Below, piece by piece: positions 28,491-42,419 of a stretch of DNA of 64,000 nt. How positions within the stretch are numbered: the stretch's first letter is position 1; the number at the start of each line of letters is the position of its first letter. The notes beneath the pieces were generated by a model. The model was not told the DNA's origin, made no database searches, and saw nothing but the letters and a program-made list of their open reading frames with translations. Position numbers and translations under genes: made by a program. Source of the stretch: Escherichia coli (GTDB lineage: Bacteria; Pseudomonadota; Gammaproteobacteria; Enterobacterales; Enterobacteriaceae); the NCBI RefSeq assembly GCF_024223415.1, contig NZ_CP100500.1. One strand, written 5' to 3'.

Positions 28491-31082
28491 ATGCATCAAT
28501 CTGGTTCTGTTTCTCTTTGTCGTTCCGCAATATCTGTTCTGGTGGCTACAGCGTTATATTCACCCATAGCATTGGCATCAACAGTTGAGTATGGTGAGAC
28601 AGTTGATGGTGTTGTCCTGGAAAAAGATATCCAGCTGGTTTATGGGACCGCCAATAATACGAAAATCAATCCTGGCGGAGAACAGCATATTAAAGAATTT
28701 GGTATAAGTAGTAATACTGAAATTAACGGCGGGTATCAGTACATTGAAATGAATGGCACCGCAGAATACTCAGTATTAAATGATGGTTATCAAATTGTTC
28801 AAATGGGTGGCGCGGCAAACCAGACTACGCTCAATAATGGTGTGCTACAGGTTTATGGCGCGGCGAATGATCCCACGATTAAAGGCGGGCGCTTAATTGT
28901 TGAAAAAGATGGGATTGCCGTCTTTGCCGCTATCGAAAAGGGAGGATTACTGGAGGTTAAAGACGGGGGATTAGCATTTGCGGTAGATCAGAAGGCAGGC
29001 GGTGCTATTAAAGCAACCACGCGGGTCATGGAGGTATTCGGAACAAACCGTCTCGGTCAGTTCGATATCAAGAATGGAATTGCAAACAATATGCTGTTGG
29101 AAAACGGCGGAAGTTTGCGAGTTGAAGAAAATGACTTCGCTTATAATACTACTGTAGATAGTGGCGGCTTACTGGAGGTTATGGATGGCGGGACTGCAAC
29201 TGGCGTTGATAAAAAAGCAGGCGGAAAATTAATTGTCTCAACGAATGCGCTGGAAGTGAGTGGTACAAACAGTAAAGGCCAATTTAGTATAAAAGATGGT
29301 GTGTCAAAAAATTATGAACTGGATGATGGTTCCGGGCTTATTGTTATGGAGGACACGCAGGCCATTGACACTATCCTTGATGAGCATGCCACTATGCAAT
29401 CGCTGGGAAAGGATACTGGGACGAGAGTGCAGGCAAATGCGGTATATGATCTCGGTCGATCAGATCAGAATGGAAGTATCACGTATTCCTCAAAAGCCAT
29501 CTCTGAAAATATGGTTATCAACAATGGCCGCGCTAACGTCTGGGCTGGCACAATGGTTAACGTGTCAGTCAGAGGGAATGATGGCATTCTTGAGGTCATG
29601 AAGCCGCAAATAAATTATGCACCCGCAATGTTGGTGGGTAAGGTAGTGGTTTCTGAGGGCGCTTCTTTTAGAACGCATGGTGCCGTGGATACCAGCAAAG
29701 CGGACGTTTCGCTCGAAAATAGCGTATGGACCATCATTGCCGATATCACTACGACGAACCAAAACACCCTCCTCAACTTAGCCAACCTTGCGATGTCTGA
29801 CGCAAATGTGATTATGATGGATGAGCCAGTGACTCGTTCATCAGTGACGGCAAGTGCGAAAAATTTCATTACGTTGACCACCAATACCCTGTCGGGAAAC
29901 GGCAATTTTTATATGCGTACCGATATGGCTAATCATCAGAGCGATCAGCTCAACGTCACCGGTCAGGCAACAGGTGATTTCAAAATATTCGTGACGGACA
30001 CCGGTGCCAGCCCGGCAGCAGGAGATAGCCTTACACTGGTAACAACGGGCGGCGGTGATGCTGCATTTACGTTGGGCAATGCCGGAGGTGTTGTTGATAT
30101 CGGTACGTATGAATATACCTTGCTGGATAATGGCAACCATAGCTGGAGTCTGGCAGAGAATCGCGCGCAAATTACCCCTTCAACCACTGATGTGCTGAAT
30201 ATGGCGGCCGCACAACCGCTGGTATTTGATGCAGAACTGGACACCGTGCGTGAGCGTCTTGGTAGCGTAAAAGGCGTTAGTTACGATACGGCGATGTGGA
30301 GTTCGGCAATTAACACCCGCAACAACGTGACCACTGATGCGGGAGCTGGTTTTGAGCAAACATTGACGGGCCTGACGCTCGGTATCGATAGCCGTTTCTC
30401 CCGTGAAGAAAGCAGCACAATTCGCGGCTTGTTCTTTGGTTACTCTCATTCTGATATTGGTTTTGATCGCGGCGGCAAAGGCAATGTCGATAGCTATACC
30501 CTGGGTGCTTATGCCGGTTGGGAGCATCAGAACGGTGCCTATGTTGATGGGGTGGTGAAAGTTGACCGTTTTGCCAACACCATCCATGGCAAGATGAGTA
30601 ATGGGGCAACAGCGTTTGGAGATTACAATAGTAACGGCGCGGGTGCTCATGTTGAGAGCGGGTTCCGTTGGGTTGACGGATTGTGGAGTGTTAGACCCTA
30701 TCTGGCCTTTACCGGCTTTACCACAGATGGTCAGGACTACACGTTATCAAACGGCATGCGCGCGGACGTGGGAAATACCCGGATATTACGCGCTGAAGCG
30801 GGAACGGCGGTAAGCTATCACATGGACCTGCAAAACGGTACGACGCTGGAACCCTGGCTGAAAGCCGCCGTGCGTCAGGAATACGCCGATTCTAACCAGG
30901 TGAAAGTTAATGACGATGGCAAATTTAATAATGATGTGGCTGGAACCAGTGGCGTTTATCAGGCTGGGATAAGGTCATCGTTTACCCCGACGTTAAGCGG
31001 TCATTTGTCAGTCAGCTATGGCAATGGCGCAGGGGTAGAATCGCCGTGGAATACCCAGGCGGGTGTGGTCTGGACGTTCTGA
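28491..31082 (+). CDS. yejO: Autotransporter adhesin-like protein YejO (intact, 863 aa)
   Basis: It has a signal peptide, an AIDA-type repeated beta-helix passenger (repeated GG.L.V..GG.A units) and a C-terminal beta-barrel ending VVWTF. Confidence 0.88.
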   Translation: MHQSGSVSLCRSAISVLVATALYSPIALASTVEYGETVDGVVLEKDIQLVYGTANNTKINPGGEQHIKEFGISSNTEINGGYQYIEMNGTAEYSVLNDGYQIVQMGGAANQTTLNNGVLQVYGAANDPTIKGGRLIVEKDGIAVFAAIEKGGLLEVKDGGLAFAVDQKAGGAIKATTRVMEVFGTNRLGQFDIKNGIANNMLLENGGSLRVEENDFAYNTTVDSGGLLEVMDGGTATGVDKKAGGKLIVSTNALEVSGTNSKGQFSIKDGVSKNYELDDGSGLIVMEDTQAIDTILDEHATMQSLGKDTGTRVQANAVYDLGRSDQNGSITYSSKAISENMVINNGRANVWAGTMVNVSVRGNDGILEVMKPQINYAPAMLVGKVVVSEGASFRTHGAVDTSKADVSLENSVWTIIADITTTNQNTLLNLANLAMSDANVIMMDEPVTRSSVTASAKNFITLTTNTLSGNGNFYMRTDMANHQSDQLNVTGQATGDFKIFVTDTGASPAAGDSLTLVTTGGGDAAFTLGNAGGVVDIGTYEYTLLDNGNHSWSLAENRAQITPSTTDVLNMAAAQPLVFDAELDTVRERLGSVKGVSYDTAMWSSAINTRNNVTTDAGAGFEQTLTGLTLGIDSRFSREESSTIRGLFFGYSHSDIGFDRGGKGNVDSYTLGAYAGWEHQNGAYVDGVVKVDRFANTIHGKMSNGATAFGDYNSNGAGAHVESGFRWVDGLWSVRPYLAFTGFTTDGQDYTLSNGMRADVGNTRILRAEAGTAVSYHMDLQNGTTLEPWLKAAVRQEYADSNQVKVNDDGKFNNDVAGTSGVYQAGIRSSFTPTLSGHLSVSYGNGAGVESPWNTQAGVVWTF

Positions 31083-31143
31083 TAACAGACAATAAACAGG
31101 CCGTGATGTGTCGCGGTCTGTTTATCGAATTAAATGCAGATAT

Positions 31144-31175
31144 AAAAAAACCAACCTTTACGGTTGGTTTTTTTT
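31144..31175. terminator. Bidirectional hairpin terminator, likely the ancestral proL terminator displaced by the island
   Basis: An A-run, an ACCAACC-tttac-GGTTGGT hairpin and a T-run lie directly next to the degenerate copy of the tRNA 3' end. Confidence 0.7.
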
Positions 31176-31177
31176 GG

Positions 31178-31206
31178 GATTTTTGGTCCACGAGAGTAGT
31201 TTAATT
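31178..31206. repeat. Distal att repeat, a degenerate copy of the proL 3' end
   Basis: gattttTGGTC-CACGAGAGtagTTTaAtt aligns with gatt-TGGTCGGCACGAGAGgaTTTgAac at 42416-42445. The minus strand reads CTCTCGTG--GACCA, against CTCTCGTGCCGACCA for the tRNA end. Confidence 0.65.
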
Positions 31207-31257
31207 GAGTGTGTAACCACATGATTTTAAATAATATGCTTGATTCAACTTTTAAAT

Positions 31258-31278
31258 CGTATAACCAAACGTATAACT
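31258..31278 (+). repeat. Two direct CGTATAAC(C/T) motifs, candidate integrase arm-type sites at the distal end
   Basis: CGTATAACC at 31258 and CGTATAACT at 31270. The same 9-mer occurs four times next to int at 42236-42285. Confidence 0.55.
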
Positions 31279-31447
31279 AAAATCATTTGCTGAAAAAGTG
31301 TACAATTTAAAGGCGAGTTTTCCCAGAGGTTTATTAAACTACGAAAATTTCGTAGTTTGTGAATATATTCCGGCCTGCTGGTTAACAGTCCTCAGATGTG
31401 AGGGATGTAGCCAGCGCAATTTTGCGCTTTGCTTTAATCTCAGTCAG

Positions 31448-31729
31448 TTATCGCCGTAACCGCTCCGGCTTCTTCCAGTGGTACGTAATTTTTTCTTTCT
31501 CCCGATACAGTTCAACGCGGCGATTGTAGGCCAGCATTTCCAGAACGCGGATCCGTATGTCGCGCATATCCACGCCGTTAAGCTCAATACCGTCACGGCG
31601 CATCACCTCAGCAACCACACGCGCATAATTTTCGGCGGTCACGCTGTCCGGCTGCGTGGCCTGTTCGTCAGCCTGCTGGCTGATTCCGGCAACGCGACGG
31701 ATTAATCGCAGTAGTTCGGCTTCTGTCAT
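31448..31729 (-). CDS. Hypothetical 93-aa protein flanking cos-1
   Basis: The ORF has a plausible composition, is the last gene before the island end, and abuts the cosQ side of cos-1. I do not recognise the family. Confidence 0.55.
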   Translation of the reverse strand: MTEAELLRLIRRVAGISQQADEQATQPDSVTAENYARVVAEVMRRDGIELNGVDMRDIRIRVLEMLAYNRRVELYREKEKITYHWKKPERLRR

Positions 31730-31763
31730 TGTGCCCCCATCGTTCTGATAGTCTGGTGTCGTC

Positions 31764-31989
31764 GGGTCCTTCCTGGAATTATGGCCCGTTACGGGGCGTC
31801 GACCTCGCGGTTTTTCGCTATTTATGAGATTTTTTGAGGGGGTGGTTGTTGTTTAATTGTTTGGTATATCTAATTGATAAGTAAGGTAAAAATAAAATAA
31901 ATACAACAACCTTACGGTGTATTTTGATGTCATTAATGTGAAAAAATTCAATGATATCAAATGGTTTTGTAAAAACATATGGTTGTTGT
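31764..31989 (+). other. cos-1: lambda-type cohesive-end site (cosQ GGGTCCT, cosN, cosB with GGTTGTTGT repeats), reading rightward
   Basis: gggtccttcctggaattatggcccgttacg|GGGCGTCGACCT|cgcggtttttcgctatttatgag aligns with the lambda junction GGGTCCTTTCCGGTGATCCGACAGGTTACG|GGGCGGCGACCT|CGCGGGTTTTCGCTATTTATGAA. The 12-nt end equivalent is at 31794-31805. Confidence 0.8.
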
Positions 31990-32163
31990 ATCGCGTATTT
32001 GATGGCGTAACAGAAAGTGATTTTTAACTTTACCGCTCTGTAACTACGGATTATTCCATGCTGGCACGGAGAACGGCTACGGCATGACGCCACCCAGCCT
32101 ATACAGAACAGTAAAGCCGATAAATTGTTAATCACGCGCAGCAATGCGTGTGATTTTTGCACA

Positions 32164-32359
32164 CTTCCGGTTAACGGGTACGATGTCCGGTTTGTTTGTA
32201 CATTTTTTGCACATGTCCGGTTCGCAGAAAGCATGTTTTTATATTTTTCATATAGTTAACTTGCAGAGAAACCGGACATGGATCCCGAAAAATTTTCATA
32301 AATAGTGAAAACGCGCGAGGTCGACGCCCCGTAACGGGTCCACATGCCGGAAAGGACCC
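32164..32359 (-). other. cos-2: second lambda-type cos site in inverted orientation (cosB with ATGTCCGGTT repeats), reading leftward
   Basis: The minus strand reads gggtcctttccggcatgtggacccgttacg|GGGCGTCGACCT|cgcgcgttttcactatttatgaaaattttc. The 12-nt end equivalent is at 32329-32318. Confidence 0.8.
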
Positions 32360-32361
32360 GC

Positions 32362-32384
32362 AAAAAAAGCCGGATTTCTCCGGC
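32362..32384 (-). terminator. Rho-independent terminator ending the capsid operon
   Basis: The minus strand reads GCCGGA-gaaa-TCCGGC followed by TTTTTTT, 7 nt after the stop of the 137-aa gene. Confidence 0.8.
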
Positions 32385-32390
32385 CTTGTC

Positions 32391-32804
32391 TCAGATGGTT
32401 TTCAGTATGCGATCGATGTTGCCGTCATCGACCGGGTTTCTGCCATCGTATGCCATGCCAGCTGATACGGCTTTCGGGCTGTGCATGTCCATAAAGTTTT
32501 CAAAGGCTGAAGTAAGCTGTGGTGCAACCTTCGGGCGTTCCTGCTCTATGGTCATGCTAAGGATGCTTTTAGCCGTACCAACATCGATACAAGGCACGTT
32601 AGCCATTGCACGTAACAGCGGCTGGTAGTCGTCAGATTCATGAAGCGCCATAATCGCATCAGCGCGCTGCTTGTCCTGTTCTTCCAGTTTGTTTAGTCGG
32701 TGTATGGCCTCGTAGGTTGATAAACCTCTGTCAGCCATTGCCCGCGCTTCGGCTTTAAATTTACTCGCCAGCGGTAGCGTCATGATACTTTCATTCGTTG
32801 CCAT
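32391..32804 (-). CDS. Hypothetical 137-aa protein, last gene of the capsid operon (possible scaffold or size-determination factor)
   Basis: The ORF is tightly spaced after the decoration gene and has an acidic, helical-looking sequence. I do not recognise the family. Confidence 0.6.
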   Translation of the reverse strand: MATNESIMTLPLASKFKAEARAMADRGLSTYEAIHRLNKLEEQDKQRADAIMALHESDDYQPLLRAMANVPCIDVGTAKSILSMTIEQERPKVAPQLTSAFENFMDMHSPKAVSAGMAYDGRNPVDDGNIDRILKTI

Positions 32805-32816
32805 CGTTCCCCCTGC

Positions 32817-33152
32817 TTATCGGGCCAGCGGCTGAACGGATACGCCGGAACCCGCAAAGGCGGCGCATTTTTTCGCATCGGTGTCGACGCTGTCAGGCCA
32901 GTTAACGGCGGCAATATTGAATATCCCCGTTTTGTAACACTGTGCTGATTTCTGCTTTGACGTGTCCACGGGGTGCGAAGTCAGATAAACAGCTTTGCCA
33001 GATTCCTGACCATCCCACGCCTTAAACTCGCCATTGTCTGCCAGCATCAGCGGGGTAAATTCCTGAATAACGCCAGCATCAGCGGCAAAATGTACCAGCG
33101 TCGTGGATACCTGCTGGCTGCCTGCAAATAACTCAATATATGGAGCGTCCAT
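32817..33152 (-). CDS. Head decoration protein, lambda gpD family
   Basis: TPLMLADNGEFKAWDG and YKTGIFNIAAVNWP...KKCAAFAGSGVSV align with lambda gpD TPLMLDTSSRKLVAWDG and YKSGTFRYEDVLWP...KKRTAFAGTAISI. Confidence 0.85.
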   Translation of the reverse strand: MDAPYIELFAGSQQVSTTLVHFAADAGVIQEFTPLMLADNGEFKAWDGQESGKAVYLTSHPVDTSKQKSAQCYKTGIFNIAAVNWPDSVDTDAKKCAAFAGSGVSVQPLAR

Positions 33153-33163
33153 AGAATCCCCCG

Positions 33164-34219
33164 TTAAGCAATTTTGACGGTAACAAATTTGCGAATATCT
33201 GCCGGTACCGGCTGCGGTGCGCTGTGCGTCTGCACGTACTCAATCGCCGGATCGCCGTCCTCAATCCAGTTTTTCGGGTAGTACATGTTTTGCGTTGCGC
33301 CCGTTCTTACCGCTTCCTGATCCATAATCGCACCATATGCCACAAGCCCTTTATTGTTGGTGTTACCCAGGACAAGCAAATCAGGCTCAAGGAAATATTT
33401 TTCGGTGCCGTCGCTGTCAGTGTATTTGCCGGAATAGACGATAAGGGCCAGATCACCAAGATAGCCTTTAAAGCTCACCACTTCGCCCAGGTTTTTACAG
33501 GCCAGCTCGGCGGCGGATTCTGAGCCACGGTAAAGATCGTACAGTTCACGGAATTTTTTAAAGCTGCGTAATGTGCGCCATGCCTCACCGCCCATAATCA
33601 TGACGTTGGCGGGGCAACCTGCCTGATCAGCATAAAGCTCGATGTCATAGATTGGGTCGTGCATGTCTTTATCCTGCTGGGACCATTTTTTACCACTGGC
33701 CTGCTGTATGATGCAGTTTTCCGGTATTTTCCAGTCGATTTCATAGCGTTCTATGCCTTCGCCCTCAATGATGTTTTTTCCGGTCGTTACCGCATTCACC
33801 GCCAGCCATTCCACGCGCGCCTTAATGGCGTTTATCTGGCGGCGCATGTTGCCAGTAATCAGGCGCATACGGCGGTAAGTTGGATCGTTAAGCTGTGCCG
33901 GATCTTCTCCAGCCATGCGCATGATGGTCTTTGTTGGATCGATTTCGTGCTTTGGCTTCATGTAGCCTGGTTTAATCGTGCTGGTTTCGTACCCTTTATC
34001 GCGCTGGACCTGACTACCCACCATAGGAGAACAGAACGCTGACATCGTAACCTCTTCAATGTCCAGGGTGTCCAGCATGATGTTTTGGGTGTTGAAGGTC
34101 GCCACGTTCGGGAAAAACAGCGTGGTAAACAGCGGACTAAATTTAAATTCCGAAATATCCCCGCGATTCAGGTACGCGAAAAGCTGGTTAGTTGTAAGTG
34201 CCGTTGCTTTGCCTGTCAT
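33164..34219 (-). CDS. Major capsid protein, lambda gpE family
   Basis: FKFSPLFTTLFF, PGYMKPKHEIDP, DPTYRRMRLI, IVYSGKY and YPKNWIEDGDPAIEY align with lambda gpE FKFDPLFLRLFF, PGYVKPKHEVNP, DPAYRRRRII, VVYSGQY and YPKNWVTTGDPAREF. Confidence 0.9.
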   Translation of the reverse strand: MTGKATALTTNQLFAYLNRGDISEFKFSPLFTTLFFPNVATFNTQNIMLDTLDIEEVTMSAFCSPMVGSQVQRDKGYETSTIKPGYMKPKHEIDPTKTIMRMAGEDPAQLNDPTYRRMRLITGNMRRQINAIKARVEWLAVNAVTTGKNIIEGEGIERYEIDWKIPENCIIQQASGKKWSQQDKDMHDPIYDIELYADQAGCPANVMIMGGEAWRTLRSFKKFRELYDLYRGSESAAELACKNLGEVVSFKGYLGDLALIVYSGKYTDSDGTEKYFLEPDLLVLGNTNNKGLVAYGAIMDQEAVRTGATQNMYYPKNWIEDGDPAIEYVQTHSAPQPVPADIRKFVTVKIA

Positions 34220-34425
34220 TATTCACCTCCGTGAACCTGATTGATACCCAGCGCCGCACGTAAATAGGTACGCACCTGCCAGCCTGTTGACGGCTCAACC
34301 ATCGCCAGCGGATCAAGTCCTGCCGCAATGCCTGCTTTTACATTCTGCTGGTGGCGTTCCTTGAGCGCCTCCACGATGTCGGGGCTTATGTAGACCGTCA
34401 CCCCGCCTTTTTTCTCTTCTGCCAT
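34219..34425 (-). CDS. Hypothetical 68-aa protein, first gene of the capsid operon
   Basis: The RBS AGAGGAA precedes the ATG, and the stop overlaps the capsid gene start (ATGA coupling). Confidence 0.6.
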   Translation of the reverse strand: MAEEKKGGVTVYISPDIVEALKERHQQNVKAGIAAGLDPLAMVEPSTGWQVRTYLRAALGINQVHGGE

Positions 34426-34459
34426 AGTCAGAAATTCCTCTTTGACTTAAAAAATCATA

Positions 34460-34509
34460 ACTGGATGTTCATCCAGTCCTGATTATAATCATGATTGCAT
34501 TTTGCGCAA
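34460..34509 (-). promoter_or_regulatory. Candidate sigma70 promoter of the capsid operon with an overlapping palindromic operator
   Basis: The minus strand reads TTGCGC (34509-34504), a 16-nt spacer, then TATAAT (34487-34482). The inverted repeat ACTGGATG-aa-CATCCAGT (34477-34460) follows at about +1. Confidence 0.5.
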
Positions 34510-34592
34510 CAATATTGAGTTACGTTGCAAATTATGAAATGATTATCCCGATCATGTGTGCCAGTGCACCATAAAAAACCTCGTATACAAAA

Positions 34593-34630
34593 GCCCGATA
34601 AGCCCCCTGTGACCTTATCGGGCTTTTTTT
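34593..34630. terminator. Hairpin terminator upstream of the capsid promoter
   Basis: GCCCGATAAG-11 nt-CTTATCGGGC hairpin followed by TTTTTTT on the plus strand and by TTTTG on the minus strand. Confidence 0.6.
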
Positions 34631-34636
34631 AGGCGT

Positions 34637-34658
34637 AAAAAAGCCGGATTGCTCCGGC
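34637..34658 (-). terminator. Rho-independent terminator after the ProQ/FinO-like gene
   Basis: The minus strand reads GCCGGA-gcaa-TCCGGC followed by TTTTTT, 26 nt after the stop at 34684. Confidence 0.75.
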
Positions 34659-34683
34659 TTCGTCTCTTCATGTGGTCAGGGTT

Positions 34684-35278
34684 TTATGCTTTCCGTACGC
34701 CCGAGGAACTGGCATTTTTCAGAATAATATTATGCCCTGCTGGTGGCTTACCGTTATGCTTATTTTCTGCCTTCATGTTTCTGCGCTCCTGCTGTTTTTT
34801 CTTCATCTCATCCAGTCGCTTCCCCGCGTTCAACTGGTGCTCCTGTGTCACCTCCCCGCACGGATGGCCTTTCAGGTCGTAACGCACGCCACCAGCCATC
34901 AGGGAACGGTAATATCGCACTGAACTGACATAATACGCCAGCGTTGCGCGAAGCGCTCCCTGACCTAATGAAATACCTCTCGCAGTAATATCCTCCATCA
35001 GGTCATCAAATATGCCAACCTTAAGCGGTCTGGGCGATTCCTGGCTGAAAAGTTCAGGCCAGAGCGCGGCAAGGCGTTCAACGCGTCTGATATTTTTTTT
35101 CCGGCTCTTTTCTGATTTGCGTTTTGCTGCCGTCTTCTGTTGTGTTTTCTGCTCGCGGCTCTGCTTTTGCGCTGGTGTGGTTTTATCCGGCTGTTCAGCC
35201 TCCTGCGTCTTTTTCTGCGGTGTGCCGTATATGCCTTTTGGTTTTCGGTTAATGGTCAGCTTTGTCATGTTCTCCCCC
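34684..35278 (-). CDS. ProQ/FinO-domain RNA-binding protein with a lysine-rich N-terminal tail
   Basis: PRPLKVGIFDDL...LRATLAYYVSSVRYYRSL..GGVRYDLKGHPCGEVTQEH aligns with E. coli ProQ ARPLKIGIFQDL...LRSALRLYTSSWRYLYGV..GATRVDLDGNPCGELDEQH. The preferred start is MTKLTINRK at 35278, behind the RBS AGGGGGAG. The track ORF extends to 35364. Confidence 0.8.
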
Positions 35279-35347
35279 TTTGTGCTGTTCCACCAGCGGC
35301 ATCTGCTACCCCGTGTCGCTCCCGCTGGTGTCGTGTTTCCCCGCCTG

Positions 35348-35668
35348 TTAATAACCGTCATCATTTACGTTATCAGGGTAATCACGCCATATTTCATCAG
35401 TAAGCGACGGTAGCCCCATCTGTTGTATTGTCCTGTCTGCGGCCCTTCTGACTGCGTGAACATCATAACGGTTTTCAGGTATCGGGCGCTTTGCCTTCCT
35501 GATACATTCCCTTGCTCTCATTGCCGCAAGTTCTCTGTGCCTGTCTTCCTGAAGAGTAATCATCACATCCTGCCACCTTCTGGCAGCCCGTCGCCACAGT
35601 CCCCTGCTCTCGAGTTCTTCTGCTGTCGCGTCGCTTATTGTCCGGTTCTTCGGTGTGCTGTTGTTCAT
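35348..35668 (-). CDS. PerC-family (PerC/Pch-like) transcriptional regulator
   Basis: This is a 106-aa ORF. The N-terminal AEELESRGLWRRAARRW motif resembles the PerC signature. The call is made from memory of the family only. Confidence 0.55.
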   Translation of the reverse strand: MNNSTPKNRTISDATAEELESRGLWRRAARRWQDVMITLQEDRHRELAAMRARECIRKAKRPIPENRYDVHAVRRAADRTIQQMGLPSLTDEIWRDYPDNVNDDGY

Positions 35669-35685
35669 GTTGCTCCCCGCCTGAT

Positions 35686-36096
35686 TCAGAAGGGTATATC
35701 ATCTCCGTAGGGGTCATCGCCTCCCGCTGGTGGCTCATTCCCCTGTGTGCCTGTGGTTTTGCGTCTGTTCCCGCCATGACGTGCCGCACGCGCACTGATT
35801 ACGCTGTCTGCGATAACCTGCCAGCCCTGCCGCGTTTCCCCGTTCTGTCCGGTCCACTGGCTCACCTGCATGTTACCCGCCACGCTCAGGAGTTCACCTT
35901 TGCGGTGCTTTGCCAGTGCTTCGGCCTGTCTGCCAAACGCCAGCACAGATAACCACATCGTCGCCGTTCCGTCATCTGCCTGGCTGCACGGAAGGGGGAC
36001 CGCCATACTCGCCATCGCCATTTGTGTCCCCTTGCTGGTGGTCTTTAACTGCGGGTCAGCCACCAGCCGCCCGTAAGCCGCTATCTGTGCTGTCAT
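35686..36096 (-). CDS. ssb: Single-stranded DNA-binding protein
   Basis: It has an OB-fold N-terminus (GRLVADPQLKTTSKG...WLSVLAFGRQAE), a Gly/Pro-rich linker and the canonical acidic tip DDIPF. Confidence 0.85.
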   Translation of the reverse strand: MTAQIAAYGRLVADPQLKTTSKGTQMAMASMAVPLPCSQADDGTATMWLSVLAFGRQAEALAKHRKGELLSVAGNMQVSQWTGQNGETRQGWQVIADSVISARAARHGGNRRKTTGTQGNEPPAGGDDPYGDDIPF

Positions 36097-36344
36097 GCTG
36101 TATGCTCTCCGGTTTTAACGTTGATGGTTGTCACCTGTTCCGCTCCGGCAATCTCCCGTTCTGTCAGCGTGGCAAAATTTGCCGCTACCGTTGTCATGAA
36201 TGCGCTTATCAGTTCGGGATGTGCTTTCGCGTATCCTTCTCCCGCGTGGCGGTCTATCGTTCTGATTGCCACCTTTAAGGCGTGCTCTGTCATGTCTAAC
36301 GCTTTATATTTTGGCGCTGTCTTATCTCTGGTTTTTCTGTTCAT
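36093..36344 (-). CDS. Hypothetical protein (83 aa from MNRKTRDK)
   Basis: The track ORF is 36093..36374. Its first 10 codons are translated iteron repeats, so the start at 36344 is preferred. It overlaps the ssb start. Confidence 0.55.
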   Translation of the reverse strand: MNRKTRDKTAPKYKALDMTEHALKVAIRTIDRHAGEGYAKAHPELISAFMTTVAANFATLTEREIAGAEQVTTINVKTGEHTA

Positions 36345-36555
36345 TCCCCACCACTCCCCACTTTTGCTCCCCACTTTTTAAATTCCCCACTTGCTCCCCA
36401 CCTCGTTTTTTGAGTGAATCTAATGCTTTGTTTTTCATTGCGTTTTTTACTCCCCACTTTTTTGGATGTATACAGGTGGGAAAGTGGGGAATTATGTTTC
36501 AATTTTGTTAAATTCCCCACTCTCCCCACTTTTACTACCCACTTTTTACAGTGGG
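36345..36555. repeat. Iteron-type replication origin: about 13 copies of YCCCCAC(T) flanking an AT-rich spacer
   Basis: Direct copies are tccccac, ctccccact (x4), ttccccac (x2), tctccccact and tacccact. Inverted copies are gtggga, gtgggga and gtgggta. The AT-rich core is at 36411-36448. The region lies immediately 3' of the helicase gene. Confidence 0.7.
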
Positions 36556-37961
36556 TAAACATCATCCCCATCGACACAAATCACGCCGTCTTTTTCCAGC
36601 TTGGACAGCCAGCGCCGGAAGTGCTTCATCTCATACCCCAGCTTTTTCATATCGTCGCGGAGAAGGGCGATAGTGCATGGCTCTTTGTGTGCCGTCCGCG
36701 TTCTGATGCACTGCCATAGCGCGGTATGGTTTTCCGTCTTGTTGCCTGCCTCCTCGATGCGCTCCAGTTCAACGGGAGAGCGCGGCTTATCAACCACCAC
36801 CAGCGACGTGATTAACTCCCCGTCAGCGTCGGTAAAAAGCTCCACCACGCGTAAATCGTAGGCGGCCTCTTTCAGTTCCTCCGCGTCCTTCATTTTGGTG
36901 CAGGATATAACCAGGGCTTTACTGTCTGCACCTTCTCGGCGAATACGGTATTCAGCGTCCAGAGATGCACGAAATGCACTGGAACCACGCGCCCCCTTTG
37001 TTTCATCCTTGCCGGAATGGTGGACCACCAGCACCGTGGCCCCTGTGCGTCGTTTCAGGTCGTCACATCCACGGATAAACGCCCCCATATCCCGCGCGTC
37101 ATTTTCATCATTACCGCCAAAGCAACGCGCCAGCGTATCCAGAATAATCATGCGTACCGGTTTACCCGTTTCCCGTTCAACCTGGCGGGAAGCGATAACC
37201 ATTTCATCAACATCAAGCGGGGCTGCCGGAAAAATCGGGCGGTTTACCAGGTACAGATTTTTCACCCGTTCATCATTAACGATTTCCCATGCCTTGATAC
37301 GACGGGGGACACCAATGCCACCTTCACCGACAACATACATCACCGAACCATGCGCCACCCTGCGGCCTCCCCAGTGGCGCCCCGTGGCAACATGACACGC
37401 CCAGGAACACGCAAGGAATGATTTATAGGAACCGCTCGCACCGTATGTGCTGCACAATGAATTAGCCGGAATCACGCCCTTAACGACATAATCAAGCTGT
37501 GTGTCGTATCCTGCAGATCCAATGCTCATGGGTAGCGTGGTTTTTCGCTGGCTGTATTGCTCATCAGTAAGTATTTCCCCGCGCTCTGCCTGTTCGCGGA
37601 TCCGTTGCAGGTAGTCGCGCCATTCCTCCCGCTTCTGGCTGTGCATTCCCTCGGGGTAATAACTCGCATCCCGTATACCTGCCGCCGCCAGTTTTTGCCC
37701 GATGGCATTAATATTTGATGGCTTGATGTGGCCTGCCTTGTACAGCCGGACACAATAGCGACCATCGTCGATAATTTTCAGGTCTGCCAGTTCGTCAAGC
37801 TGACTGTCTCCCAGCCATACTGGCGGGACGTTATCGCCAGCAAGTCGCCCGTCCTGTTCCTGCCATTGTTTTGCGTGCGCCCAGGCATCACTACCTGCAA
37901 AAATAATGACTTCGGTCATTTTGTTGTGTGGCTGTTTTTTTAAGTTCGGTGCCAGTTTCAT
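36546..37961 (-). CDS. Replication initiator helicase (RecA-fold, RepA/DnaB-like AAA_25 type) with a C-terminal winged-helix domain
   Basis: This is a 471-aa ORF with a Walker A-like GASGSYKS, Walker B MIILDTLARCFGG and the motif VLVVHHSGKD. The start is coupled to the upstream gene (ATGA). Confidence 0.8.
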   Translation of the reverse strand: MKLAPNLKKQPHNKMTEVIIFAGSDAWAHAKQWQEQDGRLAGDNVPPVWLGDSQLDELADLKIIDDGRYCVRLYKAGHIKPSNINAIGQKLAAAGIRDASYYPEGMHSQKREEWRDYLQRIREQAERGEILTDEQYSQRKTTLPMSIGSAGYDTQLDYVVKGVIPANSLCSTYGASGSYKSFLACSWACHVATGRHWGGRRVAHGSVMYVVGEGGIGVPRRIKAWEIVNDERVKNLYLVNRPIFPAAPLDVDEMVIASRQVERETGKPVRMIILDTLARCFGGNDENDARDMGAFIRGCDDLKRRTGATVLVVHHSGKDETKGARGSSAFRASLDAEYRIRREGADSKALVISCTKMKDAEELKEAAYDLRVVELFTDADGELITSLVVVDKPRSPVELERIEEAGNKTENHTALWQCIRTRTAHKEPCTIALLRDDMKKLGYEMKHFRRWLSKLEKDGVICVDGDDVYPL

Positions 37962-38257
37962 TTTTTATCCCTGAATCCGTTAATCATGGTTTTCATCTTC
38001 TGAATATTGGCGCGTGCTTTCTCCCTGCTGGTTGGTTTACTGCGGGGCGCTGCCTGTACCAGAGAAAAATCACGCCGGAACTGATAAACAGGCATCACGC
38101 AGTCATATTCGTAGCCATCACGGCGGTAAGTGATGCGCCGTTCTGCCACGCCTTTAATCGTTACCGTACCGCCGTAGTTATCACGGAAAATATCGCCGGG
38201 ACGGATTTCAGGCCGAGCGGGGCCGCTGGCAGTAAAGCCAGAATTTTTCTTTTTCAT
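37958..38257 (-). CDS. Hypothetical 99-aa protein (possibly DUF4222-like)
   Basis: The ORF is coupled to the helicase gene, and small proteins of this type commonly precede satellite primase/helicase genes. The family assignment is only a recollection. Confidence 0.55.
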   Translation of the reverse strand: MKKKNSGFTASGPARPEIRPGDIFRDNYGGTVTIKGVAERRITYRRDGYEYDCVMPVYQFRRDFSLVQAAPRSKPTSREKARANIQKMKTMINGFRDKK

Positions 38258-38261
38258 GGTT

Positions 38262-38462
38262 TTATTTTCCTGTCAGTGATTCCGGCTTTATTCCGGCGCG
38301 AATACAGGCTTCAGAAAAAAAAGCCAGAGAACCAATAACCTCATTATTTCTAAGGCGGCATTGCGATTTCACTTTCCCTTTATCCAGGAATATCAAAACG
38401 CGCCCCGTATAATCAGATGGCACATTAAGCACTACAGGTAAGTGCGCTTCATGATTATTCAT
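38262..38462 (-). CDS. Hypothetical 66-aa protein
   Basis: The start MNNHEAHLPV at 38462 lies behind the RBS CAGGAGGTGG and overlaps the upstream stop (ATGAATAA). The track ORF extends to 38531. Confidence 0.6.
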   Translation of the reverse strand: MNNHEAHLPVVLNVPSDYTGRVLIFLDKGKVKSQCRLRNNEVIGSLAFFSEACIRAGIKPESLTGK

Positions 38463-38898
38463 GGCTAACCACCTCCTGGAATTTTCTTCTGTAACGCGCC
38501 TCTGCCACATATTCAGCATAGTCCGACGCAATATTGAGAATATCGCTACCCGTTCCTGAATGTTCGGCGGTTTCCAGTAAAAAACATGCAGCTTTTACCA
38601 TGTCAGCAACACATAACAGCGCAATATCTGTATCTTCCGGTGTGCCATCAAATTCCTGTTTCAGGGCATTAAAACGATCATCACGCATAACCCCATATTC
38701 ACAATCAGCAATCAGGATGGCTTTGGCCTCATTCAGTGCCATATCAGCGGTAAGCTGTGCGTAGGCCAGCAAATGCGGGATTATTGCCCCTGTATATTCC
38801 GGCTCTCTGATAATGTGGTCGGATGTGTTGATTAAATAGTTTGTGCGAAAAATGCACCTGTAACCATCAGTTAACAACGGATATACAGGGGGGACCAT
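38455..38898 (-). CDS. Hypothetical protein (about 147 aa if started at MVPPVY; the true start is uncertain)
   Basis: The C-terminal ~130 aa have protein-like composition (..ALNEAKAILIADCEYGVMRDDRFNALKQEFDGTPEDTDIALLCVADMVKAACFLLETAEH..) and the stop is coupled to the next gene. No strong RBS precedes 38898. Confidence 0.5.
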   Translation of the reverse strand: MVPPVYPLLTDGYRCIFRTNYLINTSDHIIREPEYTGAIIPHLLAYAQLTADMALNEAKAILIADCEYGVMRDDRFNALKQEFDGTPEDTDIALLCVADMVKAACFLLETAEHSGTGSDILNIASDYAEYVAEARYRRKFQEVVSHE

Positions 38899-39681
38899 GA
38901 ATGATAAGGGGGTGCCGTTTGATGTGCTCCTGCAAAAGCTGAATGCTGCACGCGCCGCAAGGGAACGTGAGCGCATGAGTAATAACCCTGTCCCTCCTGA
39001 ATTACCTCGCCCTGAACATTTTCCGCTTGAGGATTTCATCAGGGGACGAATCCGAACAAAACGATAACCGCCGCCGTGATATGAGGCATCACGACGCAAT
39101 GCATTACAGGTGAGCACCATGAACAAATCCATATTATCCCCCACAGTTCTGGACGTAAACACAAAGCAGCGACAGATATTATTACGCGCCGTCATTAAAG
39201 CCAGACACGAGAAATTAAACCAAATCTTAAAATAAGATACGCCGCTACCGCTGTAAGTCTTCATCAGAAACAGAAAACGCCAGAGCAGATGAGCACGGAG
39301 GTAACTCTTTATGAAAATAAACGAATCAGGGGAAATTACCGAAGCCAGCGTGGTACGCCAGCGGAGGCGGGAACGACGGGTACGGCCCCCCGCGCCATCC
39401 GATAATTTCCCGCTTGAGCGCTTCATCAGTGAACGGCCCCGCATACGCTGGAACGGCACAACCCCATACCCCGAGGAGAGACAGACAAAAAACAAACAGC
39501 GATGATGAAATCTGGAGGCCAATACCATCACGCAGCCATCAGGAGATTGCTGACGCGCTTCCTGTTCGCTGGTGGCCTCGATGGTAATCACGCGCGGTTG
39601 TGCAGTGCTCAGGGCGATAAAACGCCACACAAAGGCCGTTTGTGTGTGCGCAAGGCGTGGGGTATGCTGTGTTCCAGCCAT
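38455..39681 (-). CDS. Icd-like (host cell-division inhibitor-like) N-terminus continuing without a stop into the downstream gene. This may not be a single real protein.
   Basis: A strong RBS AGGAG lies 7 nt before the ATG at 39681. The sequence MAGTQHTPRLAHTQTAFVWRFIALSTAQPRVITIEATSEQEARQQ resembles Icd-like proteins of P4-type elements. The following ~260 codons are R/S/C-rich and junk-like, yet stop-free. Confidence 0.35.
   Translation of the reverse strand: MAGTQHTPRLAHTQTAFVWRFIALSTAQPRVITIEATSEQEARQQSPDGCVMVLASRFHHRCLFFVCLSSGYGVVPFQRMRGRSLMKRSSGKLSDGAGGRTRRSRLRWRTTLASVISPDSFIFIKSYLRAHLLWRFLFLMKTYSGSGVSYFKIWFNFSCLALMTARNNICRCFVFTSRTVGDNMDLFMVLTCNALRRDASYHGGGYRFVRIRPLMKSSSGKCSGRGNSGGTGLLLMRSRSLAARAAFSFCRSTSNGTPLSFMVPPVYPLLTDGYRCIFRTNYLINTSDHIIREPEYTGAIIPHLLAYAQLTADMALNEAKAILIADCEYGVMRDDRFNALKQEFDGTPEDTDIALLCVADMVKAACFLLETAEHSGTGSDILNIASDYAEYVAEARYRRKFQEVVSHE
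38897..39067 (+). CDS. Candidate small ORF (56 aa), paralogous to 39311..39505
   Basis: A G-rich RBS (GGGGGG) precedes the ATG. It shares ..FPLE.FI..R.RIR with the second ORF. It is antisense to the long minus-strand frame. Confidence 0.3.
   Translation: MNDKGVPFDVLLQKLNAARAARERERMSNNPVPPELPRPEHFPLEDFIRGRIRTKR
39311..39505 (+). CDS. Candidate small ORF (64 aa), paralogous to 38897..39067
   Basis: The RBS GGAGG lies 8 nt before the ATG. It shares the NFPLERFISERPRIR block with the other ORF. Confidence 0.3.
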   Translation: MKINESGEITEASVVRQRRRERRVRPPAPSDNFPLERFISERPRIRWNGTTPYPEERQTKNKQR

Positions 39682-39808
39682 AATCGTTACTCCTGTTAAC
39701 GGTTTGGTTAGACGCCCTGCATGTGTGCCACCACTGCGGGGCGTTGTTTTTGTGGTGTCATTGGTATACATTGTCACCTTAATGGCATTATCACTACAGA
39801 GGTTTATC

Positions 39809-39985
39809 ATGTCAACCAATGACAACAAAAAAGAAAGATTTTCCGTACAACTACGCCTAGACGCAGATTTGTTCGAGCGTTTAAGTATTGCCATGAAAGA
39901 AGATGGCGACGATAACCGATCTGGATGGATCAAAAGGCTTTTACGACGCGAATTAGATAAACGCGGCATTGAGTCAAAAAGCTGA
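39809..39985 (+). CDS. Ribbon-helix-helix (Arc/MetJ/CopG-like) DNA-binding protein and candidate island repressor. It is the only convincing plus-strand gene in the island.
   Basis: MSTNDNKKERFSVQLRLDADLFERLSIAMKEDGDDNRSGWIKRLLRRELDKRG has the beta-strand/helix/helix pattern typical of RHH proteins. An AGAGG RBS precedes it, and a terminator follows at 40079-40107. Confidence 0.6.
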   Translation: MSTNDNKKERFSVQLRLDADLFERLSIAMKEDGDDNRSGWIKRLLRRELDKRGIESKS

Positions 39986-40078
39986 CAGCCAACCAGCAAG
40001 CCAGCACACTGATCACATTGCCCACCAGCCGCAAATGTGGCATTGTTGGTGATGCTTTTGTTTTCCCTTGTTCCCACT

Positions 40079-40107
40079 GGCGACCCTTTTGCGGTCGCCT
40101 TTGTTTT
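40079..40107 (+). terminator. Plus-strand rho-independent terminator downstream of the RHH gene
   Basis: GGCGACC-cttttgc-GGTCGCC hairpin followed by TTTGTTTT. Confidence 0.65.
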
Positions 40108-40203
40108 GCCTGTTATCCGGCAATTGTGGCGCTTCGCCACACGGTTTATATAACCCCACTGCTCAGATTCATTTTTTGCGCAGTAGGTTAATTGTTCGCA
40201 AGG

Positions 40204-40230
40204 GCGGCTCCTTATCGGGGCCGCTTTTTT
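40204..40230 (+). terminator. Second plus-strand terminator, possibly the 3' end of a small antisense RNA
   Basis: GCGGCTCC-ttatc-GGGGCCGC hairpin followed by TTTTTT. It is not functional in the minus orientation, where no U-run follows. Confidence 0.55.
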
Positions 40231-40256
40231 CGTGTTTGTCATATCTGTGATACCCG

Positions 40257-40463
40257 TTAAGCAGCCGTTCCGCGTGCTTCCTGTTCGCGTTCTTTCTGCC
40301 AGGCCAACACATCATCCTCATACCATCCGCGACGGCGTAAACCAACGCGAAAACCCTGCGGAAATTCTCCGGCGTTGATCATGCTTTGCAGCGTGCTGTC
40401 TGCCTTGATGTGGATAATTTTTTTTACTTCCTGGCGAAAGATAATTTTTCTGATTGCTTCCAT
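40257..40463 (-). CDS. alpA: AlpA-family regulator/excisionase (MerR-type wHTH)
   Basis: This is a 68-aa ORF. The sequence ...STLQSMINAGEFPQGFRVGLRRRGWYEDDVLAWQ is typical of the AlpA/prophage CP4-57 regulatory family. Confidence 0.8.
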   Translation of the reverse strand: MEAIRKIIFRQEVKKIIHIKADSTLQSMINAGEFPQGFRVGLRRRGWYEDDVLAWQKEREQEARGTAA

Positions 40464-40481
40464 CGTGATTTACCTTGTGAA

Positions 40482-40498
40482 TCCGGTGTATTCCGGTG
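40482..40498. repeat. Two TCCGGTG motifs 10 bp apart just upstream of alpA
   Basis: The sequence is aTCCGGTGtatTCCGGTGac. The same heptamer is phased at 10 bp three times at 42386-42412, next to the att core. Confidence 0.6.
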
Positions 40499-40596
40499 AC
40501 AAATACGGTAAATCATCGGATATGGGTAAAAACAGTTCCCACCGTTTTTAAACGGTATACACCGTTTTTTATATTGATGATTTGAAATGGAATTAT

Positions 40597-40619
40597 AAAA
40601 AAAGCGGCATTTCTGCCGC
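40597..40619 (-). terminator. Rho-independent terminator after the int-orf83 unit
   Basis: The minus strand reads GCGGCA-gaaa-TGCCGC followed by TTTTTTT. Confidence 0.75.
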
Positions 40620-40630
40620 TTCCAGGATTG

Positions 40631-40882
40631 TTACCGCCATTTTTTGGGCCTGCCTCCGATCTTCATAGATGCCGGACGTACGACCTTATCAATACTTACC
40701 GCCAGATTTCTGGAAGCGCCACGGGATACCAGAAAATCTACTACCTGTTTTTTTGATGGGGCCGTCGTCCTGTCCTCCGGATCGTAGGTTGACCAAAATT
40801 CATGCTGAACCATCAGGGCCAGTTGCAGCCCGTCGCAATTGCATCTGATATTTTTTTGCATCTTAACGGTTTCATGTTTCAC
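40631..40882 (-). CDS. Hypothetical 83-aa protein downstream of int
   Basis: The ORF ends in a basic C-terminus (GGRPKKWR). I do not recognise the family. Confidence 0.5.
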   Translation of the reverse strand: MKHETVKMQKNIRCNCDGLQLALMVQHEFWSTYDPEDRTTAPSKKQVVDFLVSRGASRNLAVSIDKVVRPASMKIGGRPKKWR

Positions 40883-40959
40883 GGCCTTGTCGTTAAATTT
40901 GATGCAATTATACGACGGTTTTACATGGTTTTCGTAGTTTTTACTGGTTTTCTGTACAG

Positions 40960-42219
40960 CTACACGGCTCGGATACCCCTTTTACCACTGGCGAGGGTTA
41001 CGCCCGTCGCCGCAGCCTCGACAAATTCGCCCCACCAGCGCATCAGCACGATGCGTTTTTCTATGTAGTTGCTCCGGTTGTATGCCCGTCTAACTTCGTT
41101 GGTGTCGACGTGGGCAAGTGCCGCCTCTATTACGTCCGGCTCGAATCCTTCCTCGTTCGCTGCTGTGCTGAATATGGCGCGTAATCCATGAGACACCAGC
41201 ACGCCAGCGAATCCCATACGCCGCAATGCTGCGTTAGCTGTCTGGCTGTTCATCGGCTGCTGTGGGTCTTTCAGACTTGGGAAAACGTAATTGCGGTGGT
41301 GGCTGATTGGTTTCATGGCCTCCAGCACCGCCATAGCCTGACCGGAAAGCGGGATAACGTGATCCCTGCGCATCTTCATGCGTCCGGCAGGTATCGTCCA
41401 TTGCTTCGCGTCCAGGTTGATTTCATCCCACCGCGTTGATGACGCTTCGGCGGGACGGGTTACGGTCAGTAACTGCCATTCAATCAGTAATCTGGTCTGC
41501 CGTTCTGTTGCCGATACTGATAAAGCCTGCATAAGCTCGGGCAGCTGTTCGGGGCGGATTGTTGGCATATGTTTTTTTACAGGTGAGGGAAACGCCTTAC
41601 GCACATTCATAGCCGGATTGGCATCAATCAGCCCACTGTTGGCGGCGTAATCCATTACCTCATTAACGCGCTGTAAAACCCGCTTGAGTGTTTCCAGGTT
41701 GCCGCGCTCCTTGATGGGGGTAAGCACTTCAACGAACCTTCGGGCGGTGAGGGTATCTATTGGCGTGTTGCCGATGAACGGGAATACATATTTATCCAGC
41801 GAACGCCAGATGTCTTTAATCGTGTTGGGGGCCAGATTCTGGCTGATTTTCACCTGGTACCATGCCGCCGCCACATTTTCGAACGTGTTCCCTTGTCTTC
41901 GGGCCTCTGTCTCTCTTTTTTGCCTCTCGTGGTCCTGCGGGTCAGTTCCGGCACTGATTAACGTCCTGTACTCGCTACGGCGTTTTCTGGCATCAGCCAG
42001 GGAAACATCTTCAAGCGATCCAAAACTCAGCAATATTCTTTTTTTGTCCGATGGTCGGTAGTAGGAAAATCTCCAGAGTTTTGATCCAGACGGTTTGACC
42101 AGGAGAAAAAGCCCTCCGCCGTCCTGCAGGGTGTACTCCTTTTGCGCTGGTCTGGCTGCTTTGATCTGCACTGTGGTTAATGGGTGTGTTTTTCTCGCCA
42201 TATGTCTATGATTCCACAC
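40960..42219 (-). CDS. int: Tyrosine integrase, P4/CP4-57 (DUF4102 N-terminal arm-binding) type
   Basis: The N-terminus reads LTTVQIKAARPAQKEYTLQDGGGLFLLVKPSGSKLWRFSY. The catalytic region contains HGLRAIFST..ALAHV and RAYNRSNY. An alternative start MARKTHP lies at 42201. The gene is adjacent to the tRNA. Confidence 0.9.
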   Translation of the reverse strand: MWNHRHMARKTHPLTTVQIKAARPAQKEYTLQDGGGLFLLVKPSGSKLWRFSYYRPSDKKRILLSFGSLEDVSLADARKRRSEYRTLISAGTDPQDHERQKRETEARRQGNTFENVAAAWYQVKISQNLAPNTIKDIWRSLDKYVFPFIGNTPIDTLTARRFVEVLTPIKERGNLETLKRVLQRVNEVMDYAANSGLIDANPAMNVRKAFPSPVKKHMPTIRPEQLPELMQALSVSATERQTRLLIEWQLLTVTRPAEASSTRWDEINLDAKQWTIPAGRMKMRRDHVIPLSGQAMAVLEAMKPISHHRNYVFPSLKDPQQPMNSQTANAALRRMGFAGVLVSHGLRAIFSTAANEEGFEPDVIEAALAHVDTNEVRRAYNRSNYIEKRIVLMRWWGEFVEAAATGVTLASGKRGIRAV

Positions 42220-42235
42220 GAAAAAACAGGGTTTT

Positions 42236-42285
42236 AGTTATACGGCTTTAGTTATACGTCAGCCCGTATAACTAAACGTATAACT
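42236..42285. repeat. Four CGTATAACT motifs (two inverted, two direct), candidate integrase arm-type sites
   Basis: AGTTATACG at 42236 and 42250; CGTATAACT at 42265 and 42277. They lie directly upstream of int. Confidence 0.6.
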
Positions 42286-42385
42286 AAAAAATCCGGCTGA
42301 TAGCTTATAAATCCGGTGATGTTCGGTGACTAAAAAACATAAAAAAACCCGCCAATCAAGTGATTAGCGGGTTATCCCTGTCTTA

Positions 42386-42412
42386 TCCGGTGCTTTCCGG
42401 TGATATCCGGTG
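42386..42412. repeat. Three TCCGGTG motifs at exact 10-bp phasing abutting the tRNA 3' end
   Basis: The sequence is taTCCGGTGcttTCCGGTGataTCCGGTGgg. Confidence 0.65.
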
Positions 42413-42419
42413 GGCGATT

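Follow-up and report, generated by a model that had tools for sequence, protein, structure and literature searches.

A FinO-domain gene carried as an optional cassette gene by an EcCICFT073-type phage satellite of Escherichia coli

Proteins with a FinO domain form the third of the major classes of RNA chaperones in bacteria and are believed to have originated in mobile elements. Members of the family bind the base of a terminator hairpin together with its 3'-OH U-tail and stabilise RNAs or promote antisense pairing (PMC9674577, PMC9977716, PMC12001967). FinO/FinP, FopA/Inc and RocC/RocR are pairs of a FinO-domain protein and a terminator-bearing RNA that are linked to mobile genetic elements (MGEs), and a 2023 review of the family states that FinO/ProQ genes are often carried by plasmids and phages and that such copies are probably ancestral (PMC9977716). 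Among phage satellites, experiments have shown that lambda, phi80 and a resident prophage induce the phage-inducible chromosomal island (PICI) EcCICFT073, let it replicate and transfer it in a cos-dependent manner; islands of its type interfere with the inducing lambda and phi80, and its genes c1499 and c1500 are capsid and decoration homologues (PMC6092414). The main literature on PICIs and capsid-forming PICIs (cf-PICIs) makes no mention of a FinO-domain gene, and we found no functional study of island-borne FinO proteins in the literature; in the Enterobacter cloacae PICI AVS0889 a FinO-family gene is listed by a survey as cargo beside Icd and PerC-type regulators, an entry for a different genus that stays at annotation level and does not analyse the distribution, context or function of the gene (PMC13612085, 2026). 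Here we analyse a 64,000-nucleotide (nt) stretch of the E. coli chromosome (contig NZ_CP100500.1 of assembly GCF_024223415.1, hereafter the window), in which a minus-strand gene at 34684-35268 encodes a single-domain FinO-like protein and forms the last gene of the early operon of an island closely related to EcCICFT073, which itself carries no such gene.

The gene is delimited by the following features:
34684-35268, minus strand: proQ/FinO-family coding sequence (CDS) of 194 amino acids (aa), RefSeq WP_029400542.1, with the PGAP start at ATG 35268
35272-35278, minus strand: strong Shine-Dalgarno (SD) sequence GGGGGAG, read directly from the sequence, 3 nt before ATG 35268
34780-35082, minus strand: FinO-domain core, about aa 63-163, placed by alignments to the RocC, ProQ and FinO structures

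The open reading frame (ORF) that stops at 34684 can also be read from an upstream ATG at 35364 on the minus strand, giving 226 aa; ATG 35268, which a strong SD precedes, is the start chosen both by PGAP/RefSeq and in the present analysis. The original prediction, made from the sequence without database searches, had placed the gene at 34684-35278; its stop is correct, whereas position 35278 is the first G of the SD and the CDS begins at 35268. The domain assignment is already in RefSeq, where WP_029400542.1 is named "ProQ/FINO family protein". The descriptive points that are new are the prevalence of such genes, their pairing with perC, their position at the end of an operon and their absence from EcCICFT073.

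Profile, sequence and structure comparisons agree on the FinO domain that had been proposed, and place the FinO/ProQ-type assignment far beyond chance. Pfam family PF04352 (ProQ/FinO) matches aa 95-195 of the 226-aa ORF, equivalent to about aa 63-163 of the 194-aa protein, with E=2.1e-26 and 92.5 bits (cut-off 27), and the three motifs quoted in support of the domain are all present, as PLKVGIFDDL, LRATLAYYVSSVRY and DLKGHPCGE. A sequence search of the PDB returned the N-terminal domain (NTD) of E. coli ProQ (5nb9, 4e-18), FinO (1dvo, 2e-15) and RocC (7rgt, 2e-12), along with Lpp1663 and NMB1681. An AlphaFold2 model built from 36 homologues reaches a pLDDT above 90 over about aa 60-160 and contains the helical core and beta-hairpin of the FinO fold; when it was compared with the PDB by Foldseek, the best 26 matches were all FinO-domain structures, with target-normalised TM scores of up to 0.85 and a root-mean-square deviation of about 2.2 A, and the next match had E >1. 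Neither Pfam nor the AlphaFold2 model revealed a second domain (linker and C-terminal Tudor-like domain) in the protein. Its layout is instead a disordered K/Q-rich N-tail, in which K and Q make up 35% of the first 62 residues and which includes a clade-specific motif, MTKLTINRKPKGIYG; a long helix at aa 41-69; the FinO core; a C-terminal helix at aa 142-171; and a basic tail. The predicted K/Q-rich N-terminal tail and basic C-terminus are thus both found. The C-terminal tail of the window allele is unusual in being extended.

RocC requires Gly52, Arg75, Tyr87 and Arg97 for its function, and in the RocC-RocR crystal structure these residues bind the 3'-terminal nucleotide in a pocket that recognises the 3'-terminal ribose with its 3'-OH (PMC9674577). 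The equivalent residues are G85, R107, Y119 and R129 in the window protein and G37, R58, Y70 and R80 in ProQ. Conservation of G85, Y119 and R129 is at least 90% among the 36 homologues, and position 107 is R or K across the clade. The product is a single-domain protein of the FinO-like RNA-binding type, which its family relationships would predict to bind RNA.

Comparison with characterised members of the family places the protein nearest to ProQ in sequence and nearest to FinO in architecture. The ProQ NTD (5nb9) is the closest sequence match to the FinO domain (E=4e-18, about 43% identity), and the equivalents of ProQ K35, R58, R69, Y70 and R80 are kept, whereas K54 and R62 are replaced by Q103 and A111, and the linker and C-terminal Tudor-like domain of ProQ are lacking. 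Because these are missing and a long helix and a basic tail are present, the architecture is FinO-like rather than ProQ-like. FinO of F-like plasmids (1dvo), the best Foldseek match, likewise has a single FinO domain between a long N-terminal helix with a basic tail and a C-terminal helix and is likewise encoded by the distal gene of a long operon on a mobile element; however, the window protein is only about 35% identical to it, is chromosomally encoded, has no finP/traJ pair and carries the clade-specific N-terminal motif. Neither NCBIfam model reaches its cut-off, the ProQ equivalog (NF003434) scoring 76.4 bits against 127 and the FinO model (NF010317) 75.6 bits against 136. FopA of pCol1B9, RocC of Legionella and NMB1681, a minimal ProQ, are also small FinO-domain proteins that are often MGE-linked (PMC9977716), and RocC and NMB1681 are among the structural matches found by Foldseek; these proteins partner one or a few terminator-bearing antisense or small RNAs. 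The genomic vehicle of the window gene, a PICI satellite, is different. PADLOC matched neither the protein nor its neighbours to a defence system.

The island that carries the gene lies between yejM/tRNA-Pro and yejO and spans about 31185-42440 (about 11.3 kb), limits that follow from a partial att repeat opposite the tRNA-Pro end. Its principal features are:
40960-42219, minus strand: tyrosine integrase gene, adjoining tRNA-Pro at 42423-42496
40257-40463, minus strand: AlpA-like helix-turn-helix (HTH), excisionase-type regulator
36546-37961: RepA-helicase gene, beside the iteron array
36335-36548: iteron-like direct repeats, three to four copies of TTTTRCTCCCCACTTTTT with a spacing of 83-85 bp, between the RepA-helicase gene and the next ORF
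35686-36096, minus strand: SSB gene, followed in most related islands by proQ, with or without perC
32817-34425, minus strand: capsid module consisting of a 68-aa ORF, a lambda-E-type major capsid protein and a lambda-D-type decoration protein, 93% identical in nucleotide sequence to c1499/c1500
31184-31198: partial att repeat TGGTCCACGAGAG at the far end of the island

The main genes are all on the minus strand and are ordered integrase, small ORF, AlpA-like HTH, icd-like gene, DUF4222, RepA-type helicase and iteron array; then small ORF, SSB, PerC, ProQ/FinO, two tandem terminators and a promoter-like gap; and finally the 68-aa ORF, major capsid protein, decoration protein and three small ORFs. 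The iteron array is probably the origin of replication of the island. Of the core components by which PICIs are recognised (PMC10085698), the island possesses an integrase, an alpA-type regulator and a replication module (DUF4222, RepA helicase and iterons), as well as capsid genes; it is small, and no tail or lysis matches were found in its 11.3 kb. It has no recognisable TerS gene, although the sister island L025 carries one, and it has only the capsid-E-type and decoration proteins rather than the full head module of a cf-PICI, which comprises capsid, protease, portal, head-tail connectors, TerS/TerL and HNH.

The original prediction that the carrier is a phage satellite is borne out by comparison with EcCICFT073, the sequence of which was taken from the CFT073 genome. 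EcCICFT073 has the same order of integrase, alpA, small divergent ORFs, icd-like gene, DUF4222, replicase, SSB, PerC, 68-aa ORF, capsid E and decoration D; its capsid module is 93.4% identical in nucleotide sequence over 2377 bp, and the corresponding proteins are 95% (major capsid), 95% (decoration), 93% (68-aa ORF), 80% (SSB) and 74% (DUF4222) identical. It differs in possessing no ProQ/FinO gene, in its integrase (24% aa identity) and att site, in a PerC only 39% identical, and in a primase where the window island has a RepA helicase. Given the 93.4% identity of the capsid module to that of a validated PICI and the shared gene order, the label of phage satellite is justified by homology, and the window island is a putatively mobile element.

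The FinO-domain gene is an accessory, optional gene of this type of PICI. It lies in a cassette of about 1 kb (perC and proQ, about 34660-35685) that has no nucleotide homology to EcCICFT073; besides proQ, these features belong to it or follow it:
35348-35668, minus strand: PerC-family gene, directly upstream of proQ
34637-34660, minus strand: intrinsic terminator T1, AAGCCGGAGCAATCCGGCTTTTTT, 24 nt past the proQ stop codon
34588-34630, minus strand: intrinsic terminator T2, of the form A7-stem-loop-stem-U4

Nucleotide homology between the window island and EcCICFT073 ends at the end of ssb (35686) and restarts exactly at T1 (34659), so the perC-proQ block takes the place of a lone perC. Not only EcCICFT073 but also the sister islands L025 and L026, which share the tRNA-Pro att site, integrase and capsid module of the window island, are without a FinO-domain gene. 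The gene is on the operon strand, has a strong SD and directly precedes the tandem terminators (z=-4.6), and a crude scan found no sigma70-like promoter just upstream of perC-proQ. T1 and T2 were considered as features specific to ProQ and rejected as such, being about 90% conserved directly after perC in ProQ-less islands. The same conservation extends to a promoter-like region at 34430-34590 (minus strand) between the terminators and the capsid module, which combines a perfect TATAAT with a weak -35 and contains repeats of TTGCAA/TTGCGCAA, and which is a candidate for an activator-dependent, possibly PerC-dependent, late promoter. A second copy of T1 (32363-32392 compared with 34637-34666, 90% identical) follows a 137-aa gene of the capsid module.

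Pairing with perC is widespread: a Pfam-confirmed PerC-family gene is directly adjacent to proQ in 61 of the 95 ProQ-bearing loci. It is mostly downstream of proQ (55 loci, with a gap of 0-50 nt and often an overlap) and is upstream in the lineage of the window island; examples are L009:10001-10806, L036:10001-10806 and window positions 34684-35668. This adjacency suggests that the FinO-domain and PerC genes are a two-gene unit. Within 1 kb after proQ, a same-strand terminator-like hairpin occurs in 57 of the 73 unique loci, usually past the next small gene; the early operon thus closes with the FinO gene, alone or together with perC.

Genes of this clade are frequent in E. coli, in keeping with the suggestion that their spread among related islands be assessed. 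A DNA-level search of 5426 complete E. coli genomes found relatives in at least 1075 of them (about 20%), at 1514 places that are all chromosomal, with up to nine per genome; the window island itself (at least 80% of it) is present in only four. All 40 records listed among the E. coli relatives are named "ProQ/FINO family protein" in RefSeq. In the protein database the clade extends through E. coli, Shigella, Salmonella and Citrobacter (40-68% aa identity, 160-215 aa), and a scan of GTDB species found close relatives in Escherichia only. Sequenced phages yielded only five distant matches, and the closest relative on plasmids is FinO at about 35% identity; thus, the clade is specific to islands rather than phage- or plasmid-borne. 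In IMG/VR there are 80 loci, the majority of them on 9-20 kb contigs. For all contexts that were examined, the upstream order is int, alpA, (antA/bro/ash/icd), DUF4222, primase or helicase, SSB and then the FinO gene, and the order int-alpA-DUF4222-primase-SSB-ProQ is common to E. coli and Salmonella. The downstream modules vary and comprise three large unknown proteins, a cf-PICI-like head module (17 of 73 loci) or an E/D capsid pair, the last being a rare lineage to which the window island belongs. The head module of ProQ-bearing loci consists of capsid, protease, portal, HNH, TerS and TerL; in the ProQ-bearing island L008 all six of these genes are found and head-tail connectors were not identified. 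Two islands of Salmonella enterica (L006:9364-10478 and L007:3045-4159) hold two tandem FinO-domain genes encoding 213 aa and 152 aa. The 52 nucleotide alleles have a median dN/dS of 0.21 for the N-tail and of 0.24 for the core, which indicates that the gene is kept by purifying selection.

The reading that we favour, with a probability of roughly 55%, is that the FinO protein serves the life cycle of the island by acting on island transcripts that end in terminators. Induction by a helper phage would switch on the early operon (alpA, icd, replication and SSB), and the FinO protein would be expected to be made after induction because its gene is the last of that operon. The protein would then clamp the terminator-hairpin base and the 3'-OH U-tail of target transcripts, as its family does, thereby stabilising the transcripts, aiding antisense pairing, or both. 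The nearest targets would be the 3' end of its own operon (T1/T2) and one or more plus-strand RNAs that converge on alpA; helper-phage RNAs are also possible targets.

The region in which such plus-strand RNAs may arise contains terminator-like hairpins on the plus strand at 40079-40099, 40125-40141 and 40200-40228, and its relevant features are:
40200-40228, plus strand: strong terminator with a 12-bp stem and U6, beside the stop codon of the alpA-like gene and conserved in ProQ-less sister islands
39809-39985, plus strand: unannotated 58-aa ribbon-helix-helix-like (RHH-like) ORF with SD AGAGG, which runs away from the icd-like gene and towards the alpA-like gene
40012-40107, plus strand: conserved element of about 95 nt, comprising a 5' stem-loop, a U-rich spacer, the terminator at 40079-40099 and a U tract

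The hairpins fall inside a 595-aa "Icd-like" ORF of RefSeq (38455-40242, minus strand). This ORF is almost certainly an artefactual run-on: only aa 204-245 belong to the Icd domain, and the real icd-like gene begins at ATG 39681 (minus strand), with a good SD and, ahead of it, a near-consensus promoter (TTGACA-17-GATAAT, 39815-39787). The C-terminal 120 aa of the 595-aa ORF match separate PHROG families. The 58-aa ORF matches Pfam RHH_1 below threshold (E=0.02), and a 45%-identical homologue is annotated on the same strand in a sister island. As the hairpins lie directly 3' of this ORF, they are read as mRNA terminators rather than as free-standing antisense RNAs, and in the simplest reading of the sequence those at 40079-40228 would terminate the mRNA of a 58-aa repressor-like protein, convergent with alpA. 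The original prediction had named plus-strand hairpins at 40079-40230, antisense to the leader of the main operon, as natural clients of the FinO protein; the hairpins are real, but they lie 3' of the 58-aa ORF, occur in ProQ-less islands including EcCICFT073 and are missing from one island with the identical protein (L029/L108), so that this specific proposal has at most weak support.

The 95-nt element folds with z=-3.5, is kept downstream of unrelated small ORFs in other islands, and occurs, unannotated, in 899 of 5426 E. coli genomes; copies elsewhere include L003:5672-5766 (minus strand) and L185 (EcCICFT073):6133-6239 (minus strand). It consists of an invariant 5' motif, ATTGCCCACCAGCC, a variable inner hairpin of at least three sequence types and a conserved terminator. 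RNAalifold, applied to 25 unique variants, gives comparative support to the 7-bp terminator stem alone, with one compensatory pair, and leaves the 5' stem-loop out of the consensus. Rfam, run at the gathering threshold on the whole window and at E<=1 on 31000-42600, gave no match to the element, no C4/CI-type immunity RNA beside the icd-like gene and, in the island, no known RNA family except tRNA-Pro. The element may be a small RNA (sRNA) or a 3' untranslated region (3'UTR) antisense to alpA read-through. In the first four to five loci it seemed to co-occur with proQ. Among 120 islands that could be evaluated, 55 of 65 that are ProQ-positive have it, compared with 26 of 55 that are ProQ-negative; after deduplication the figures are 45 of 54 (83%) and 21 of 36 (58%), an odds ratio of 3.6 (p=0.014). 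This comparison combines two sampling frames and makes no correction for phylogeny, and the association with proQ is weak. An obligate cognate relationship between the element and the protein was considered and is ruled out by the counter-examples of L029/L108 and EcCICFT073.

Several observations weigh against a role of the FinO protein in the island cycle. No client RNA was identified, and the timing of expression is read from gene order only. T1 and T2 are backbone features that are also found in islands without proQ. The 95-nt element, the only conserved candidate for a cis-antisense-like RNA, is not coupled to the gene: 58% of the unique islands without ProQ have it, as does EcCICFT073, and it is deleted in L029/L108, which carry an identical protein; its plus-strand RNA is thus a possible client of the FinO protein that is not specific to ProQ-bearing islands. 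EcCICFT073, moreover, transfers without any FinO-domain protein (PMC6092414); the basic satellite cycle can therefore run without the gene.

A more novel proposal, which we consider unlikely, is that the FinO protein and PerC together form a dedicated two-gene regulatory cassette of enterobacterial PICIs that sets the early-to-late switch or the silence of the island, PerC activating the late promoter of the capsid and cargo genes and the FinO protein acting on the 95-nt RNA, the 3' end of the early operon, or both. If this were true, no RNA-chaperone-dependent circuit would have been described in a phage satellite before it, and about one-fifth of E. coli strains would have it. Possible, though on balance unlikely, is that the two proteins are a host-directed "moron" cassette that reprogrammes host expression from the integrated island and does not serve the satellite, for example by competing with or supplementing chromosomal ProQ on its sRNA and mRNA ligands, or through PerC's control of the enterocyte effacement locus (LEE) and virulence. 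The ProQ NTD of the host is the closest characterised relative (E=4e-18, about 43% identity), which makes an overlap of ligands plausible; PICI PerC homologues are reported to affect LEE expression (PMC6092414, PMC11773190); proQ is optional among otherwise near-identical islands and adjoins perC in 61 of 95 loci; and the cassette occupies a boundary at which PICIs carry accessory genes. However, the crude scan revealed no sigma70-like promoter from which perC-proQ might be expressed separately, the cassette is inside the early operon rather than in a terminal accessory region, and the window protein is devoid of the ProQ linker and C-terminal domain. These parts of ProQ contribute to its global functions.

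It is improbable that the protein is an anti-helper or helper-exploiting factor that binds regulatory RNAs of the helper phage, such as lambdoid antisense RNAs or terminated leaders, to the benefit of the satellite or of interference. Islands of the EcCICFT073 type respond to lambda and phi80 by induction and interfere with these phages (PMC6092414), RNAs of phage origin are among those bound by FinO-family proteins in enterobacteria (PMC9977716), and the clade is diverse, with 40-68% aa identity among E. coli and Salmonella homologues; yet a dN/dS of about 0.2 does not point to an arms race, no specific phage RNA partner is in evidence, and the experimentally studied interfering island EcCICFT073 lacks the gene. 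The conserved position of the gene right after SSB, downstream of the replicase and the iteron origin, would suit a protein that binds single-stranded or structured DNA during replication or packaging of the island, but operon order explains the adjacency to SSB, the conserved pocket equals that with which RocC recognises a 3'-terminal ribose with its 3'-OH (PMC9674577), and all characterised family members act on RNA (PMC9977716), which leaves a DNA-directed role very improbable. Scarcely tenable, and already disfavoured, is the view that the gene is a non-functional hitch-hiker or is decaying: although it is dispensable in sister islands and the window allele has the unusual extended C-terminal tail, intact ORFs are found in at least 1075 genomes, the 52 alleles have a dN/dS of about 0.2, and the pocket residues are conserved across the clade.

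About 20% of complete E. coli genomes hold at least one extra, satellite-borne FinO-domain protein, usually with a PerC regulator, and such island paralogues may confound work on how ProQ regulates genes in natural isolates. PICIs may use post-transcriptional control that has not yet been looked for. The tractable EcCICFT073, closely related and without the gene, suits a clean add-back test.

Chi sites (GCTGGTGG) are concentrated in the window island, with 12 in its 11.3 kb (five on the plus strand and seven on the minus strand) compared with 12 in the other 52.7 kb of the window; in related islands their density averages about 0.94 per kb. This enrichment may protect against RecBCD in an island in which no Gam homologue was detected. 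The invariant motif of the 95-nt element is the reverse complement of Chi (at 40022). In the window, Rfam also recovered the ordinary chromosomal RNAs MicF, three naRNA4 (REP-type) and the L25 leader (4453-4546, 602-792, 12796-12879, 46212-46237).

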